A stretch of 5,526 bases of DNA from a virus. Below are positions 1-5,526 of this stretch, one piece after another. The number at the start of each line of letters is the position of its first letter. Within the stretch, counting starts at the first letter, position 1. The notes below the pieces were generated by a model. It was not told the DNA's origin. It saw only the letters and a list, made by a program, of their open reading frames with translations, and did no database searches. A program made the translations under genes and the position numbers. The stretch lies in UHGV virus genome UHGV-0392682; one strand, 5' to 3'.

Positions 1-369
1 GACGCAATCGGATTTCAAGAACTGATAGCAGAAGAAGCAGCTGCATGGAGCACAGAAACCACCGAAAACTACCAACACACGTACCAATCATTAGGAAAAC
101 AACCGTCATGGATCGAATACACAACAGACGTGAACGAAACGTACGGCGAATTTGCCGCGGGAATGCCTTTAGCATTCATGTGCTTAAACAGAGTATACGA
201 AGAAAATAAAGACGGCTCGATCAAAAACGCATCGACATACATCGACCCTACAATATACAACAGCATATTCGCAGAGTCGAGACTAAGTGCGCAAAACTTC
301 TGGGTACAAGTAGCGTTCGACGTAACAGCACGCCGAGTAATGTCAGCAAAACAAATTCCAAATTTGTAA
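1..369 (+). CDS. VP1: 5'-truncated CDS, 122 codons plus stop, open to the window start. It is probably the C-terminal part of the major capsid protein VP1 if the genome is circular.
   Basis: Frame 1 is open from nt 1 to the TAA at 367-369. It translates to DAIGFQELIAEEAAAWSTETTENYQ...NFWVQVAFDVTARRVMSAKQIPNL*. A-rich codon usage matches the other + strand genes. The next gene starts 4 nt downstream, the same packing as elsewhere. The frame is identical to the VP1 ORF that runs off the 3' end of the window (5526 is divisible by 3, and both frames are phase 1). Assignment to VP1 is inferred from circularity and gene order, not from a recognised motif. Confidence 0.55.
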   Translation, partial: DAIGFQELIAEEAAAWSTETTENYQHTYQSLGKQPSWIEYTTDVNETYGEFAAGMPLAFMCLNRVYEENKDGSIKNASTYIDPTIYNSIFAESRLSAQNFWVQVAFDVTARRVMSAKQIPNL

Positions 370-373
370 TACC

Positions 374-697
374 ATGAAAACAGCAAAAAATAGAAAAGGA
401 TGTATCGACAATCCAAACCTTACCTACCAGGCAGAACCGAGGGAGGTGAAACTAAGAAAGATAATCAGCGGAGAGGCCAGTAACATGGAAGATGGAGTAT
501 TCCCAACAATCTACACGGAAAAAAAAGATGGAGTACAACCCGAATACGACATAAGAACAGATCGATTCGAAGTAGCGATAGACGCAATGGATAAGATCAA
601 CCAAAGCATAGCAAGCCAAATCGCAAAAAACAAGAGCGAAACCGAGGCTGCGAAAAATTTCGGGACAGAAGGAAAAACCGATCCCGAAAAAAGCTAA
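374..697 (+). CDS. Hypothetical small protein, 107 aa, in the position that follows VP1 in the circle. Function unknown; an internal scaffold or accessory protein is possible.
   Basis: ATG at 374, 4 nt after the upstream stop, to TAA at 695-697. Same A-rich codon bias and same strand as the recognisable phage genes. A hairpin plus T-run terminator follows it. No motif I can assign. Confidence 0.5.
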   Translation: MKTAKNRKGCIDNPNLTYQAEPREVKLRKIISGEASNMEDGVFPTIYTEKKDGVQPEYDIRTDRFEVAIDAMDKINQSIASQIAKNKSETEAAKNFGTEGKTDPEKS

Positions 698-727
698 AGC
701 AGTCGTATAAAGATCTACCAAAACTCA

Positions 728-759
728 AAGAGGGGGGATATTTCCGCCCCCCCTCTTTT
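728..759 (+). terminator. GC-rich stem-loop followed by a T-run. It could be a rho-independent terminator or a structured element of the main non-coding region.
   Basis: AAAGAGGGGGG (728-737) pairs with CCCCCCTCTTT (748-758), an 11-bp perfect stem with an ~10-nt loop (GATATTTCCGC region). It is followed by TTTT (755-759). It sits 30 nt after the stop of the 374..697 ORF. Confidence 0.6.
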
Positions 760-852
760 AACCCTTGTAAATGTATGTAGCACAGAGCAGTAGACGTTTA
801 TACATATATAACAAGAACATAAGTATATATTCTTTTTAAAAAAAGAACGAAA
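760..852 (+). promoter_or_regulatory. AT-rich non-coding region upstream of VP2. It is likely a promoter and possibly a replication-origin region. Exact elements are not resolved.
   Basis: Non-coding stretch containing TTGTAA (764-769), TATACATATATAAC (798-811) and AAGTATATATTC (821-832), immediately upstream of the VP2 start at 853. No canonical Shine-Dalgarno sequence is present. This is the only intergenic region longer than 40 nt in the window. Confidence 0.35.
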
Positions 853-2061
853 ATGAACTTTAAAAAACTATTGGAATTACTCGAAAAAGGGGAGGATATC
901 ATGGACCCTCTCTCGGGAATCATAGGTAAAGCATCAGGAATCCTCAATACGCTGGGCGTAGGCAGGAGGAAACAGATGGAGCAACAGAAAGAAATGGTGG
1001 AGAACGCAGCCAAAATAAACTATAAATACGGAGAAATGGCGGCGAACAACGCATTCGAAAGACAGCAAGTGTTATACAACAGAACCTATCAAGACCAAAG
1101 TTACGCCAACCAAGTCGCGCAAATGGATGCAGCGGGATTGTCTCCCGGTCTAATGTATGGCAAAGGAGGTGCCGGAGGCGGAGGAGCCGGTTCGACAACA
1201 GGTGCTCCAATGGGTGCAACAGGAGCTACAGGAGCAGGAATGGCAGCCGATCCGAATACGCAACTGCAGGCATTGATGTCATTGCGACAGGTGCGGATGA
1301 GCGAACGAAAGAACGAGGCAGAAATCAAACTACTCAATACGCAAGCAAAAGCACTCGAAGCGGAAGCAGGCAAAAACCAAGAGGAAACCCAATCGATAAT
1401 CGAAAAAAGATTATGGCAAGTAAAGCAAGAGATGTTCGAAGGGTGGACGGATTTCATCGGTACGGCAAACCAACTATGGGACCAAATGGTAAAATGGCAA
1501 CCCACAAAAAAAACGACGATCGACGGCAAAGAAGTCGAGATACCTAAATACTTCGAAATAGAGGACGATAAATTCGGGAAGATCATATTCGGAGAAGAGT
1601 CATTTCAGGGCGATATGATGAAAGCCGAAAAACAAATCCTCGAAGGAACAGCGGCAATCAAAACTCTGGAAAGCATATATGCAGACGAAAAACTATCGTC
1701 AGAAATCAAAAAAATAAACGCGGACGCATGCAGCGCAATGGCTCAAGCAGCTTACTTCTACGCAGCAGGCGAAACCCAAAAAGCAGAAGCAAAAGTACTC
1801 GAAGCAAAAAAGAGAACCGAAGAAGCAACCGCAGATCTGCGAGAACTCCAATATTGGACCGAAATAGCGAATACAATCATCAAACTGGCGCAATTAGTGG
1901 GGAATCTGGCAATCGGAGGAAAAACAGGGAAAGCAATCAGAGAATACACAGAAAGAAGGATGAGCGAAACACTCCCCAAGAATTCATCGACAGTAACACA
2001 ACACTACGATCCGGAGATGAAATTCAAAGGAGTAGATAAGACCGTAACGACAAAATGGTAA
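853..2061 (+). CDS. VP2: Microviridae VP2, the minor capsid / DNA pilot protein, 402 aa.
   Basis: Complete ORF from ATG 853 to TAA 2059-2061. The N-terminal region (NNAFERQQVLYNRTYQDQSYANQVAQMDAAGLSPGLMYG) resembles the conserved N-terminal block of gokushovirus-type pilot proteins. A Gly-rich flexible segment (GKGGAGGGGAGSTTGAPMGATGATGAGMAA) is followed by a long, charged, alpha-helical/coiled-coil-like C-terminal region (KLLNTQAKALEAEAGKNQEE..., AEAKVLEAKKRTEEATADLRELQ). Its size and its position immediately before the Rep gene are typical. An alternative start is the in-frame ATG at 901 (MDPLSGIIG...). Confidence 0.85.
   Translation: MNFKKLLELLEKGEDIMDPLSGIIGKASGILNTLGVGRRKQMEQQKEMVENAAKINYKYGEMAANNAFERQQVLYNRTYQDQSYANQVAQMDAAGLSPGLMYGKGGAGGGGAGSTTGAPMGATGATGAGMAADPNTQLQALMSLRQVRMSERKNEAEIKLLNTQAKALEAEAGKNQEETQSIIEKRLWQVKQEMFEGWTDFIGTANQLWDQMVKWQPTKKTTIDGKEVEIPKYFEIEDDKFGKIIFGEESFQGDMMKAEKQILEGTAAIKTLESIYADEKLSSEIKKINADACSAMAQAAYFYAAGETQKAEAKVLEAKKRTEEATADLRELQYWTEIANTIIKLAQLVGNLAIGGKTGKAIREYTERRMSETLPKNSSTVTQHYDPEMKFKGVDKTVTTKW
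1150..1250 (+). repeat. Low-complexity, GC-rich Gly/Ala/Thr-coding tract inside VP2, with degenerate ~9-nt ACAGGWGCW repeats.
   Basis: ggaggtgccggaggcggaggagccggttcgacaacaggtgctccaatgggtgcaacaggagctacaggagcagga encodes GGAGGGGAGSTTGAPMGATGATGAG. This is a local GC island in an otherwise A-rich genome. It also generates the spurious minus-strand ORF 1101..1586. Confidence 0.6.
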
Positions 2062-2098
2062 AAAACGATTTTAAAGGGGGAAAATTCAATTAAAAACA

Positions 2099-3010
2099 GT
2101 GTGTCTATATCCAAGTACCATAGAGAATCCAAAGTACGCCAAATCGAACGAAAACGCTAAAAGAATAAGAGACCGTCGTCTAAGATGGATCCAAATTCCA
2201 TGCGGACACTGCGAAGAATGCAGACGCGCAAAAGCAAATGAATGGAGAGTGAGATTAATGGAAGAAATAAAATCCAATCCAAAAAATACTATATTTGCCA
2301 CGCTGACGTTCTCCGAAGAAAACCTAAAAAAATTGGAATATGACGAAAACGAACCAAACAAAGCACCTCAAAAAGCAATCAGCCTATTCAGAAAACGATG
2401 GTGGAAAAAGTATAAAAAACCACTCAAACACTGGCTAATCACAGAAATGGGACACGACAATACCAAAAGAATACATCTACACGGCATCGTATGGACGGAA
2501 CTAACAGAGGAACAATTCGAAAAAGAATGGGGGTACGGGTGGGTATTCTTCGGGTATGAAGTAAATGAAAAAACAATAAACTACATCATAAAATACATAA
2601 CGAAAAAAGACGAAGACAACCCTGAATTCAACGGAAAAATATTCACCTCAAAAAAAATCGGAATAAACTACATAAACAAAAACACACTCAACAGGCATAG
2701 ATATCAGGATAAATTCACAGAAGAAACATACAGAACAAATTCAGGAATAAAAACAGCATTACCAGCATACTACAGACAAAAAATATGGACGGATCAAGAA
2801 CGCGAAGCCCTCCGGATCATAAAGGAGGAAAAACAAGTAAAATACTACAACAAAACCCCTATTAAAGTAGAAACAATAGAACAATACAAAGAGTATGTAC
2901 ACGCAGTAAAATACTGGCAATCAATCAAAAAATATGACGGAAAGAGAAAAGAAGGAAATATGCAAAGGATATGCAGACCTGATCATAAAGAAAGAGAAAT
3001 TAATTCGTGA
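2099..3010 (+). CDS. VP4: Microviridae VP4, the rolling-circle replication initiation protein (HUH-type Rep), 303 aa, with a GTG start.
   Basis: The ORF is open from 2075 with no in-frame ATG before the conserved N-terminal block. GTG at 2099 gives M-C-L-Y-P..., which matches the conserved M-x-C-x-x-P N-terminus of microviral Rep proteins. Motifs: CGHCEEC cysteine cluster (2201-2221), motif I FATLTF (2294-2311), motif II HLHGIVW (2474-2494), motif III YIIKYITK (2582-2605) with the two catalytic Tyr one helical turn apart. TGA stop at 3008-3010. Confidence 0.9.
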   Translation: MCLYPSTIENPKYAKSNENAKRIRDRRLRWIQIPCGHCEECRRAKANEWRVRLMEEIKSNPKNTIFATLTFSEENLKKLEYDENEPNKAPQKAISLFRKRWWKKYKKPLKHWLITEMGHDNTKRIHLHGIVWTELTEEQFEKEWGYGWVFFGYEVNEKTINYIIKYITKKDEDNPEFNGKIFTSKKIGINYINKNTLNRHRYQDKFTEETYRTNSGIKTALPAYYRQKIWTDQEREALRIIKEEKQVKYYNKTPIKVETIEQYKEYVHAVKYWQSIKKYDGKRKEGNMQRICRPDHKEREINS

Positions 3011-3013
3011 AAT

Positions 3014-3373
3014 ATGGGAAACGGAATTCACAATCAGAAAAATAGAAAATATATTGACACGGAACAGGATAATAATGCCTGCAGAGGAAGAGGAGACATC
3101 GGAGATAGATCCACTAATCTTACAAAACTAATCGGTGCAGAAGCAGTATCCAAACGAAACTTCAGATACGAAGGAACATTCTACGTGACAGAAGACGGAG
3201 AAACATTCGACAAGGAATACGTAGATACTCAAAAACCACAAAGAACCGGCATCAGCTTCTACGAGGTAAGCAACTGGATATACAACCAAAGAAAACAACT
3301 GTACGAACCTATTATCAGGAGGATAGTAATAATCAAAAAAACCGACACTCAATTATCACTAAACTATGAATGA
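3014..3373 (+). CDS. Hypothetical protein, 119 aa, the first of three stacked small ORFs between Rep and VP1.
   Basis: ATG at 3014 lies 3 nt after the Rep stop, the same tight spacing seen at the other gene junctions. The ORF runs to the TGA at 3371-3373, which overlaps the next ATG (ATGAATGA). The N-terminal third is low-complexity and basic (KNRKYIDTEQDNNACRGRGDIGDRS). The C-terminal part looks globular (TFYVTEDGETFDKEYVDTQKPQRTGISFYEVSNWIYNQRKQLYEPIIRRIVIIKK). Its N-terminal 118 nt overlap an alternative-frame ORF (2934..3131), so the true start is uncertain; an internal GTG at 3185 is possible. Confidence 0.45.
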   Translation: MGNGIHNQKNRKYIDTEQDNNACRGRGDIGDRSTNLTKLIGAEAVSKRNFRYEGTFYVTEDGETFDKEYVDTQKPQRTGISFYEVSNWIYNQRKQLYEPIIRRIVIIKKTDTQLSLNYE

Positions 3374-3536
3374 AAAAGTTAAAAAAATCGTAAAGTGGAT
3401 CGCGGTAATAGCAGCCGCAATCGGCGCCGCAGCCGCCGTAATCATAGAGCAAGGATGCACTCACAAACACTACCTCAAAGCAAGCGGAATCAAAATCGAC
3501 ACAGTCGAAGTATCAACAACAACAAAAATTAAGTAA
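3366..3536 (+). CDS. Small single-pass membrane peptide, 56 aa. It is not in the supplied ORF track. Candidate single-gene lysis (amurin-like) or membrane-targeting protein.
   Basis: ATG at 3366 overlaps the upstream stop by 8 nt (translational-coupling geometry). TAA at 3534-3536 is followed 1 nt later by the next ATG. Translation: MNEKVKKIVKWIAVIAAAIGAAAAVIIEQGCTHKHYLKASGIKIDTVEVSTTTKIK. It has a positively charged N-terminus, a 19-residue hydrophobic Ala/Gly-rich helix (WIAVIAAAIGAAAAVII) with several small-xxx-small motifs, and a polar C-terminal tail. The locally GC-rich codons stand out against the A-rich background. Confidence 0.45.
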   Translation: MNEKVKKIVKWIAVIAAAIGAAAAVIIEQGCTHKHYLKASGIKIDTVEVSTTTKIK

Positions 3537-3537
3537 C

Positions 3538-3843
3538 ATGGACAAAAAATTCAGAAATCAGCTACTTGCTGAAAACGGAAAAAAAGAGGAAGAAATCGAA
3601 AGCGTAAACCTCGAAATCGAAGAAAGAGAGCAATCGGAAAACGGCATATTCGTGCTAATCCGCAACAAAAAAAACAAATGGGTGATCACAATGTGCGGCT
3701 CGCTCTTAAACGGAAAGGAATTCGACACCAAAGAGGAAGCTGAAGAACACATAGCTAAAAAAGAATGGGAAGACATCCTGACCGCAACATTCATATTCAT
3801 CCTGCACATAAACGAAGAAATGAGAAACACTCAAACAAAATAA
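3538..3843 (+). CDS. Hypothetical acidic protein, 101 aa, immediately upstream of VP1.
   Basis: ATG at 3538 is 1 nt after the previous stop. TAA at 3841-3843 is 3 nt before the VP1 ATG. Glu/Lys-rich N-terminus (KKEEEIESVNLEIEEREQSE), a central hydrophobic beta-like segment (IFVLIRNKKNKWVITMCGSLLNG), then FDTKEEAEEHIAKKEWEDIL. Codon bias is consistent with its neighbours. No recognisable domain. Confidence 0.5.
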   Translation: MDKKFRNQLLAENGKKEEEIESVNLEIEEREQSENGIFVLIRNKKNKWVITMCGSLLNGKEFDTKEEAEEHIAKKEWEDILTATFIFILHINEEMRNTQTK

Positions 3844-3846
3844 GCC

Positions 3847-5526
3847 ATGAAAAAAACATTAGGAGGAGACAGAATCCGAAGCGAAAGCAAAATGGAAGTA
3901 TATCTGCCTAATTTCGGTAGATCATCACATAACGTAGGAAAAATAATCCGAACATCACAAGCATGCGGCACAATCGTTCCCTATTGGTGCCAGATAGGTA
4001 TGGACGGAACGACATTTTACATCGATATCACGACAAAAGTGAAAACACTGCCGACAACCGGACCTGTATTCGGCAGCTTCAAACATCAAATCGACATATT
4101 CGTGATTCCGATCAGACTCTATGTGGCAGCGCTGCATAACAACGCTTTAGGAGTAGGGTTGAACATGAGTAAAGTGCTATTGCCGCAATTTCAAGTGTAT
4201 ACAGCCAATGCATCAATCTATGAAAACGACACCAACAGAGGACAAGTCAACCCGAGTTCACTACTCTCATACCTGGGAATAAAAGGATTCGGACGATCCG
4301 AGGTAAATCAATACCTCCGAAGATTTCCCGCAATATTCAATCTGGCGTACTGGGACATCTTCAAAAACTACTACGCCAACAAACAAGAAGAAAAGGCATA
4401 TGTAATCACCGGAGTGGACCATATTTGGAAAGAGATCCAAATAGGAGACGGGTACAATTGGGCCATAACATGGAACAATAACTCAGCTTCACCATACGAA
4501 GCCTCTCCAACGAGTGCAAAACCGCAATACATCAGGCTGGAATTCGAGGAAAACGTCTCGCCAGAAATAGTTAATGAAATACAATTCTTAACAAACAATC
4601 CAAACACACCAACAGTAGAGAGAAACGGTATAACAAAACTCGGAGACACTTTCGTATTCGAACGAACAGATCCGAATGCGCCGGGACTAAAAGAACCGGA
4701 AAACCCGAGGAAGGCGACCAATATTTACATGTATAAAATCAAAAAGGCCGTCAAATTTGCATACAAAATAAGTGCTACGTCCGGAAAAAATCCAATAACA
4801 ATGCCGGACAACCAAAAAATCAAACTAACAGCGTTCGCATTAAAAAACATCGACGACATGCGGACTGCAATCTTGGCGGCACCCAGCTCCTCGGCATTTG
4901 TAGTAGAAAATACAAAATTGCCATACATGGCAGCAACAGGGACTTTAGACCTGCCGAATTATGATCGCACAAAAACATACCACAGCTCAAATGCATGGTT
5001 CTCACAAGCAGGATTAGCGGTAAAAACATACCTTAGCGACAGGTTCAACAACTGGCTGAACACCGAATGGATCGACGGAACAACAGGGGGAATCAACGCA
5101 ATCACAGCGGTGGATGTAAGCGACGGAAAACTCACTATGGATGCTCTAATTCTCCAGAAAAAAATATTCAACATGCTAAACCGCGTAGCCATTACGGACG
5201 GTACTTACCAGGCATGGAGAGAAGCGACATACGGAGTCAGAAGCACGACACTACCCGAATCTCCTATATTCTGCGGCGGAATGCAGAGCGAAATCGCATT
5301 CGACGAAATCGTATCGAACTCAGCGACAGATGAGGAGCCATTAGGAACACTTGCCGGCCGAGGAATCGCAACCATGTACAAATCCGGAAGAGGCCTGAAA
5401 ATCAAATGCACAGAACCAAGCATGATCATGGCCTTAGGATCAATTACTCCCCGAATCGATTACAGCCAAGGCAACAAATGGTGGACAAGACTGCAAAATA
5501 TGGATGACTTCCATAAACCAACATTG
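3847..5526 (+). CDS. VP1: Microviridae VP1, the major capsid protein. 3'-partial: 560 codons, open to the end of the window. It was not in the ORF track because it has no stop in the window.
   Basis: Frame 1 from ATG 3847 has no stop through 5526. Translation begins MKKTLGGDRIRSESKMEVYLPNFGRSSHNVGKIIRTSQACGTIVPYWCQIGMDGTTFYIDITTKVKTLPTTGPVFGSFKHQIDIFVIPIRLY. It contains ...NLAYWDIFKNYYANKQEE..., ...ITDGTYQAWREATYGVRSTTLPESPIFCGGMQSEIAFDEIVSNS... and ...SITPRIDYSQGNKWW.... The YWDIFKNYYAN block and the R-S-x-x-N N-terminal motif are characteristic of microviral F/VP1 jelly-roll capsid proteins. An alternative start is the ATG at 3892 (MEVYLPNF...). Confidence 0.9.
   Translation, partial: MKKTLGGDRIRSESKMEVYLPNFGRSSHNVGKIIRTSQACGTIVPYWCQIGMDGTTFYIDITTKVKTLPTTGPVFGSFKHQIDIFVIPIRLYVAALHNNALGVGLNMSKVLLPQFQVYTANASIYENDTNRGQVNPSSLLSYLGIKGFGRSEVNQYLRRFPAIFNLAYWDIFKNYYANKQEEKAYVITGVDHIWKEIQIGDGYNWAITWNNNSASPYEASPTSAKPQYIRLEFEENVSPEIVNEIQFLTNNPNTPTVERNGITKLGDTFVFERTDPNAPGLKEPENPRKATNIYMYKIKKAVKFAYKISATSGKNPITMPDNQKIKLTAFALKNIDDMRTAILAAPSSSAFVVENTKLPYMAATGTLDLPNYDRTKTYHSSNAWFSQAGLAVKTYLSDRFNNWLNTEWIDGTTGGINAITAVDVSDGKLTMDALILQKKIFNMLNRVAITDGTYQAWREATYGVRSTTLPESPIFCGGMQSEIAFDEIVSNSATDEEPLGTLAGRGIATMYKSGRGLKIKCTEPSMIMALGSITPRIDYSQGNKWWTRLQNMDDFHKPTL

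Follow-up and report, generated by a model that had tools for sequence, protein, structure and literature searches.

A 5526-nt viral sequence with a capsid gene divided between its two ends is almost certainly one complete circular genome of an Alpavirinae-like gut microvirus

The UHGV virus genome UHGV-0392682, a stretch of 5526 nucleotides (nt) that we analysed at its full length and refer to as the window, begins within one open reading frame (ORF) and runs out within another, both of which belong to the capsid gene VP1. This raises the question of whether the window was cut from a larger entity or is a circular genome that happened to be opened inside a gene, as a first-pass annotation of the sequence had proposed. 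Our analysis argues strongly for the circle: we hold it almost certain that the window is one complete 5526-nt circular genome unit, derived from human faecal metagenomes and belonging to an uncultured, Alpavirinae-like virus of the family Microviridae. The gene at issue lies in two parts:

3847..5526, plus strand: 5' part of VP1 (major capsid protein), codons 1-560; the gene resumes at base 1
1..369, plus strand: 3' part of VP1, codons 561-682 (122 codons before the stop), with the stop codon at 367-369

The ATG at 3847 starts a frame-1 ORF that stays open over 560 codons up to base 5526 and thus, as had been described, runs off the 3' end in phase 1; the window likewise opens in mid-ORF in the same phase, with bases 1-369 open in frame 1 as far as the stop codon. 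That both ends share a phase follows from the divisibility of 5526 by three, which in itself is no evidence. Once base 5526 is joined to base 1, the fused ORF (3847..5526 plus 1..369, 2049 nt) reads through without interruption, as anticipated, and its product continues over the join as ...DFHKPTL/DAIGFQEL... (the slash marking the join here and below). This product has 682 amino acids (aa), the 683 given initially being the codon count with the stop included.

The test that had been suggested for the fused protein, its comparison with microviral capsid profiles and homologues, yielded an end-to-end alignment with no insertion or deletion (indel) at the join. The Pfam family Phage_F (PF02305) matches VP1 just once, at residues 461-680 and model positions 285-499 of 501, spanning residues 560/561; the score of 40.9 bits, at a cut-off of 25, marks the protein as an F/VP1-type capsid protein. 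PHROG 514 (major head protein) covers residues 22-681, again in a single match (E=5e-40). In a tblastn search of 50,697 phage records, the fused VP1 matched 403 records, in 107 cases over at least 80% of its length; the best matches listed align residues 1-682 in one piece, and the top match, PQ006946.1, does so unbroken at 56% identity. The best 120 VP1 protein matches reach 88-93% identity at 98-100% query coverage, are nearly all 680-682 aa in length, and reside mostly on contigs of ~5.5-5.7 kb. When we aligned the query with 122 VP1 homologues in MAFFT, none of the 123 sequences was gapped within 16 residues on either side of the join (32 columns), and residues L560, D561, A562, G564, F565, Q566, E567 and L568 were invariant. 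Since the columns flanking it are gapless and largely invariant, the join lies in the most conserved motif of VP1 (HKPTL/DAIGFQEL). The only solved structure reached by sequence search with VP1, PDB entry 8DES (deposited as 'Major capsid protein'), aligns to residues 429-598, straight through the join (E=2e-7). The ratio of nonsynonymous to synonymous substitution rates (dN/dS) of VP1 relative to its relatives is 0.05-0.11. The continuity of VP1 over the join is far beyond chance.

Further evidence on the topology came from contigs that were found by an exact lookup of the VP2 protein, the DNA pilot protein of the window, and compared base by base with the circularised window. Nine contigs have an identical VP2, the longest of them measuring 5653 nt, and six near-identical contigs are collinear with the circle, with 0-5 single-nucleotide polymorphisms (SNPs) and no indels. 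The contigs that bear on the ends of the window are the following:

L006 (SPAdes NODE_2294_length_5581, ENA): 5581 nt, terminal repeat of 55 nt, unit of 5526 nt; consists of the window followed by a second copy of the first 55 bases, and is almost certainly the contig from which the window was taken
L004 (k127): 5653 nt, terminal repeat of 127 nt, unit of 5526 nt; starts at window position 5093
L005 (k113): 5639 nt, terminal repeat of 113 nt, unit of 5526 nt; starts at window position 5372
L007: 5522 nt, no terminal repeat; spans the join
L008: 5406 nt, no terminal repeat; spans the join; its VP1 was called as an intact gene of 682 aa and matches Pfam Phage_F

Terminal redundancy, which the first-pass annotation had named as the support to look for, is present in three assemblies. 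Its lengths of 55, 113 and 127 nt are k-mer sizes of assemblers, and the contigs break at different places while sharing a common 5526-nt unit. A terminal repeat of exactly one k-mer is the usual mark of a circle in a k=55 assembly. With three values of k, three break points and a single unit length, a false cycle induced by a repeat is therefore excluded. The transition 5526/1 itself is crossed internally by L004, L005, L007 and L008, with 0-5 substitutions relative to the window and no indel, and L006 consists of nothing but the window and 55 nt, so that a much longer source contig with other flanks, the outcome that would have spoken for a fragment, was not encountered. The exact 41-mer over the join has no match in IMG/VR or JGI metagenome contigs; contigs in ENA and Logan support it instead. 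These contigs stem from metagenomes of human faeces; the record name of L004, for example, includes 'human.gut.metagenome' and PRJEB12449, a project used in faecal colorectal-cancer metagenome studies. Only six positions vary among the six near-identical contigs (951, 1650, 1707, 2104, 3810 and 5526). The last of these is the final base of the window, where G and A alternate in TTG and TTA, both of them leucine codons.

The unit length recurs in the wider clade. Relatives in IMG/VR that have terminal repeats of k-mer size yield units of 5523-5535 nt, and the units of six relatives (5526-5534 nt), at 84-87% identity to the window and with 10-24 gap positions, each align to the doubled window as one high-scoring segment pair with 100% reciprocal coverage. 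At the level of assemblies, the 5526-nt unit also falls among the small circular genomes of the Microviridae (~4.2-6.5 kb). Taken together, the terminal repeats, the four join-crossing contigs and the collinear relatives bear out the proposal that the window is a linearised circle and not a fragment, and its divided capsid gene is the result of an ordinary, well-understood linearisation of a circular viral genome. A de Bruijn assembler would have walked once round the circle, with the linear contig beginning at an arbitrary point inside VP1; the end of the contig would then have repeated the first k-mer (55 nt), and trimming would have left VP1 split between the two ends of the window.

Some points weigh against this reading. 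Circularity was derived from assembly graphs and not from reads, though over several samples, assemblers and values of k; the single-strandedness of the genome and the structure of the virion are presumed from family membership; and an 11.6-kb contig of an 83%-identical relative (L009) runs on into non-viral DNA. The first of these points touches on the alternative that survives best, namely that the molecule is complete but not a monomeric circle, being either a terminally redundant linear genome or a tandem concatemer. Assembly alone cannot tell a circle from a permuted or terminally redundant linear molecule, and one relative (L012) was indeed assembled as a contig exceeding one unit, in which the sequence recurs exactly every 5528 nt. 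However, concatemers are to be expected as intermediates of rolling-circle replication, and the window encodes an HUH rolling-circle replication protein (Rep), while no terminase or other linear-genome machinery was found in it with Pfam and PHROG. Moreover, its unit length lies within the family range, and the characterised Microviridae all package monomeric circular single-stranded DNA (PMC3091885). We consider a linear or concatemeric molecule very unlikely.

A second alternative holds that the window was cut out of a larger entity, for instance a Bacteroidales provirus or a bigger mobile element, and that its ends are in frame by coincidence. This would be in line with the flanking integrase genes on L009 (JGI 3300007105 Ga0102630_101894; join at ~5538-5545, matching window positions ~1174-1184), the non-viral part of which has genes for tyrosine recombinases of the Bacteroidetes type, for an AAA ATPase and for a zeta toxin. 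Yet both the join and the start of this contig are poly-G runs in the glycine-rich linker of VP2, at the same viral position, the join splits VP2, and the viral part amounts to exactly one unit. We therefore judge L009 to be a chimeric assembly rather than an integrated relative; another contig, L010, breaks at the same G-rich linker site.

True integration was found among distant relatives in a provirus scan, for which the VP1 profile was run against one genome per prokaryotic species. Full-length VP1 relatives (40-45% identity) lie inside contigs of 73-265 kb in Dysgonomonas sp. 521, D. macrotermitis DSM 27370 and a metagenome-assembled genome (MAG) of Paludibacteraceae, where the gene order is small ORFs, VP1, ORF107 (the ORF directly 3' of VP1), VP2 and Rep. 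On either side of these proviruses lie imperfect direct repeats, spaced by 6.0-6.3 kb, such as CATAATGGTAATTATATAACA in L021, which by eye resemble dif sites:

L021, 6664-6694 and 12721-12751: flanking repeats of a provirus
L019, 2660-2687 and 8662-8689: flanking repeats of a provirus
L022, 6518-6541 and 12812-12835: flanking repeats of a provirus

The Alpavirinae proviruses of Bacteroidales have no integrase but dif-like flanks, and a model of XerC/D-dependent integration has been put forward for them (Krupovic & Forterre, PMC3091885). The repeats found here match this model, and the proviruses detected here likewise lack an integrase. The named hosts of the founding proviruses are Bacteroides and Prevotella, whereas the proviruses detected here reside in Dysgonomonas and Paludibacteraceae.

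The window does not resemble a piece of such an element. In the proviruses, the point of opening lies between Rep and the small ORFs rather than inside VP1. In the window, the dif-like repeat of the Dysgonomonas proviruses has no match even with up to 3 mismatches allowed, and the generic pattern CATAA-N7-TTATG has one match only, at chance level; a temperate lifestyle by way of dif-like sites, a feature of the founding proviruses though not necessarily of all members, is thus not apparent here. In addition, contigs with the exact VP2 never exceed 5653 nt, the terminal repeats of all three lengths lead to the same unit, four contigs cross the join without an insertion, and credible host flanks are absent from the contigs of the window's clade. 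There is no sign of chromosomal integration by this virus. Its lifestyle is probably strictly lytic; at the least, free circles are the only form in which it was captured. The idea of a fragment, extremely improbable in our view, is largely refuted. The most likely host of the virus is a bacterium of the order Bacteroidales. A scaffold of 5673 nt in the assembly of an Acinetobacter lwoffii isolate (L018, NZ_JACWEU010000076.1) encodes a VP1 82% identical to that of the window. It is self-contained, with VP2 split across the scaffold ends, and most likely represents contamination; A. lwoffii was not retained as a host. Finally, the probability that the circle is an artefact of assembly, either a false cycle due to a repeat or a chimera formed from two microviruses, is negligible: L006 is of low coverage (cov 3.86 in its name), and L009 and L010 exhibit misjoins or breaks at the G-rich VP2 linker, but two assembler naming styles, three values of k and several runs agree apart from 0-5 SNPs, every gene is intact and under purifying selection, and more than 25 independent relatives are collinear with the unit over its full length.

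Besides VP1, the circular unit comprises the following genes:

374..697, plus strand: ORF107, 107 aa, directly 3' of VP1
853..2061, plus strand: VP2, DNA pilot (minor capsid) protein, 402 aa, with the glycine-rich linker encoded at ~1160-1250
2099..3010, plus strand: VP4 (Rep), HUH rolling-circle replication initiator, 303 aa, GTG start
3014..3373, plus strand: ORF119, 119 aa, clade-specific
3366..3536, plus strand: ORF56, 56 aa, basic (isoelectric point 9.7), with one N-terminal hydrophobic helix
3538..3843, plus strand: ORF101, 101 aa, acidic, immediately 5' of VP1, a core gene of the lineage

All genes are located on one strand, 96.3% of the sequence is coding, and the order on the circle is VP1, ORF107, VP2, Rep/VP4, ORF119, ORF56 and ORF101. 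The gene content and the size of ~5.5 kb had been taken to fit a complete Microviridae genome, and both gene order and size do match those of complete relatives. VP1, ORF107, VP2, Rep, ORF56 and ORF101 have dN/dS values of 0.05-0.24 relative to relatives. For Rep, we found matches to Pfam PF23343 (E=5.6e-12) and PHROG 942 (E=5.6e-32), and the HUH motifs I (FATLTF, residues 66-71), II (HLHGIVW, 126-132) and III (YIIKYITK, 162-169, with two tyrosines) are intact and conserved in the alignment, as is characteristic of Microviridae. The GTG at 2099 aligns with the ATG of a conserved MCLYP N-terminus in six homologues, one of them 87% identical. Gene callers in five of the six near-identical assemblies chose the internal ATG at 2258 instead; we rejected the resulting 250-aa Rep, which would be deprived of a conserved four-cysteine region (C2, C35, C38 and C41). 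VP2 is matched by nine PHROG families of the type 'pilot protein for DNA ejection', with a best E of 1.7e-7 and thus modest support from sequence; PQ006946.1 has an annotated pilot protein in synteny with it. The dN/dS of VP2 is 0.07. Judging from the family, the virion would contain circular single-stranded DNA in a T=1 capsid of 60 VP1 copies. VP2 would pilot this DNA into the cell, the host would convert it to a double-stranded replicative form, and Rep, with its HLHGIVW and YIIKYITK motifs, would nick the origin and drive rolling-circle replication.

The four small ORFs have no family match in Pfam or PHROG, the Pfam hits at E<=10 being sub-threshold noise. ORF107 (dN/dS 0.07-0.15) has counterparts of 35-55% identity at the same position in PQ006946.1, in MG945452.1, in a contig of a Faecalimonas-binned MAG (L020) and in the Bacteroidales proviruses. 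For Alpavirinae, a VP3-like internal scaffolding protein has been proposed to be encoded by the ORF just 3' of VP1 (PMC3394797), and ORF107 might, by its position, be the equivalent of this protein. Likewise, ORFs of 30-47% identity to ORF101 (dN/dS 0.24) occupy the same position in PQ006946.1 and MG945452.1, with a weak match in the Dysgonomonas provirus L019. ORF119 was called in independent contigs and is 64% identical in L018; its dN/dS of 0.3-0.5 points to weaker constraint. ORF56, which overlaps the end of ORF119 by 8 nt, has a dN/dS of 0.07-0.11 and is predicted to be a small membrane protein, its Kyte-Doolittle maximum over 19 residues being 2.33 at residues 9-27. Since no peptidase or E-like gene is found in the genome, one may speculate, but only speculate, that ORF56 has a lysis function. 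An alternative-frame ORF of 65 aa at the boundary of Rep and ORF119 (2934-3131) contains stop codons in orthologues and was dismissed as a gene, and Rfam and tRNA scans of the window returned no RNA genes.

How, then, is this virus related to known microviruses? In a megablast search of the 50,697 phage records, the whole window produced only two matches of ~50 nt, so that there is no close GenBank phage genome among them. The relatives that make up its clade were obtained from IMG/VR, ENA and Logan; they are fully collinear with the window at 83-87% nucleotide identity, and their VP1 proteins are 88-93% identical and almost always 680-682 aa long. An 89% identical VP1 is also present in nr, as 'MAG TPA: Major capsid protein [Microviridae sp.]' (P0085). 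Viral species are usually delimited at 95% identity. All retrieved relatives are less than 88% identical to the window at the nucleotide level, and the window and the six near-identical contigs therefore form a species-level group of their own. Among the GenBank phage records searched, Bajarodmic virus 724 (PQ006946.1) has the nearest complete genome, which is circular, measures 5528 nt compared to 5526, and has the same gene order, with VP1, an ORF of ~108 aa, a pilot protein, a 303-aa Rep and small ORFs. Identities amount to 56% for VP1, 52% for Rep, 48% for ORF107 and 47% for ORF101. In contrast to the window, this virus originates from rodent faeces and has ATG as the start codon of Rep; at the nucleotide level, no more than about a third of its genome can be aligned with the window.

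The window shares with the Alpavirinae, a proposed subfamily of the Microviridae (PMC3091885; PMC3394797) that appears as 'Family 5' in PMC9239249, the human gut as its source, a genome at the larger end for the family, a large VP1, the presence of an ORF just 3' of VP1, and the restriction of recognisable genes to VP1, VP2 and VP4 in the order VP4-VP1-VP2 (PMC3394797). Homologues of VP3 and VP5 are lacking; no window protein matched the respective Pfam families. It is unlike the Alpavirinae proviruses in that it has neither a dif-like site nor an M15 peptidase. We thus describe the window as Alpavirinae-like, a placement suggested by these shared features and by the Bacteroidales provirus relatives at 40-45% VP1 identity. 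With the Gokushovirinae it has in common a pilot protein, an HUH Rep and the location of all genes on one strand, and the capsid of the gokushovirus structure 8DES is homologous over the VP1 residues given above. Gokushoviruses differ, however, in several respects. They have VP3 and VP5, a VP1 of ~530-570 aa and genomes of ~4.4-4.9 kb, with 4421-4594 nt in Chp2, phiMH2K and SpV4. Their VP1 genes measure 1602-1698 nt, and the 8DES chain has 566 aa compared to the 682 aa of the window's VP1. The initial view that this VP1 is of normal size consequently stands for Alpavirinae-like viruses but not for gokushoviruses. No named gokushovirus appeared among the organism names and matches listed in the VP1 tblastn search at E<=1e-5. 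Bacteroides phage phiHBP1 (PV598014), according to its authors the first cultured microvirus of Bacteroidota (PMC13064476), resembles the window as a gut microvirus, and its host belongs to the Bacteroidales; it is set apart by a VP1 identity of 23%, confined to the C-terminal part, and by a genome of 6319 nt that encodes a peptidase.

The sole large intergenic region, 155 nt in length, extends over positions 698-852, between ORF107 and VP2, and has three features:

727..758, plus strand: GC-rich hairpin followed by T residues, with a stem of 11-12 base pairs (AAAGAGGGGGG / CCCCCCTCTTT)
790..817, plus strand: invariant non-coding block of 28 nt, 36 nt 5' of the VP2 start (GTAGACGTTTATACATATATAACAAGAA)
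830..847, plus strand: palindrome of a T-run and an A-run, just 5' of the VP2 start codon (TTCTTTTTAAAAAAAGAA)

The hairpin at 727-758 (DNA fold z = -3.7) was matched in a terminator-like scan. GC hairpins of unrelated sequence occupy the same place in different lineages, a differing one being found in PQ006946.1, and it therefore appears that structure and not sequence is selected here. The hairpin is likely a transcription terminator; alternatively, it could be the start site of complementary-strand synthesis. The block at 790-817 is identical in ~30 genomes of the clade, although their overall identity is only 83-87%, and lineages with a VP1 identity of 46-58% retain 23-28 of 29 positions, with 26 of 29 in PQ006946.1; a weaker version is present in the Dysgonomonas proviruses. 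This conservation makes it a candidate promoter, replication origin or both. The palindrome at 830-847 folds as a small hairpin, and its layout of a T-run and an A-run is kept in all lineages aligned. On the best reading of the sequence, the region would comprise a terminator and then the promoter of a genome-length transcription unit from VP2 to ORF107, which would probably end and restart here. It may also hold the origin, with the block as a candidate site of Rep action, and the hairpin could be a priming site of the complementary strand. To our knowledge, no replication origin has been mapped in this group of viruses. A weak likeness by eye between the phiX174 origin and the reverse complement of the block, near CTTG-TAT, was deemed insignificant in its AT-rich context.

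A further property of the lineage is its nucleotide composition. The coding strand of the window consists of 41% A and 17% T. The skew is stronger at four-fold degenerate sites, with 52% A and 9.6% T, and is present in every gene. At these sites, A accounts for 45-67% and T for 6-26% in the proviruses and in relatives with VP1 identities as low as 38%. The bias is opposite to that of phiX174, Chp2, SpV4 and phiHBP1, where T accounts for 51-71% of four-fold sites, with 71% in phiHBP1 compared to 9% in the VP1 gene of the window, and a preference for NNT codons, meaning T-rich silent sites, has been reported to be general for single-stranded DNA phages (PMC3278643). The cultured gokushovirus phiMH2K, however, also has more A than T at four-fold sites (46% versus 27%) and therefore provides a partial precedent for the A-rich bias. 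One could imagine that this lineage packages the strand complementary to its mRNAs and thus consists of negative-sense microviruses, in which case the packaged strand would still be T-rich and the invariant block would be an origin on the complementary strand. We regard this as improbable; it is more likely that transcripts are purine-loaded, that selection favours an unstructured genome, or that the bias reflects host-specific mutation.

As a circular genome unit, the window can be used as a complete replicon with no part lacking, and the seemingly 'truncated' capsid ORFs at its two ends make up a single gene. The clade of human-gut microviruses to which it adds a species-level genome is uncultured and very abundant, with members already present in nr and in assemblies of IMG/VR, ENA and Logan; the new genome should be useful for virome reference sets. 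Of more specialist value are the invariant block, as a concrete candidate for a promoter or origin, and the reversed nucleotide skew that extends throughout the lineage.

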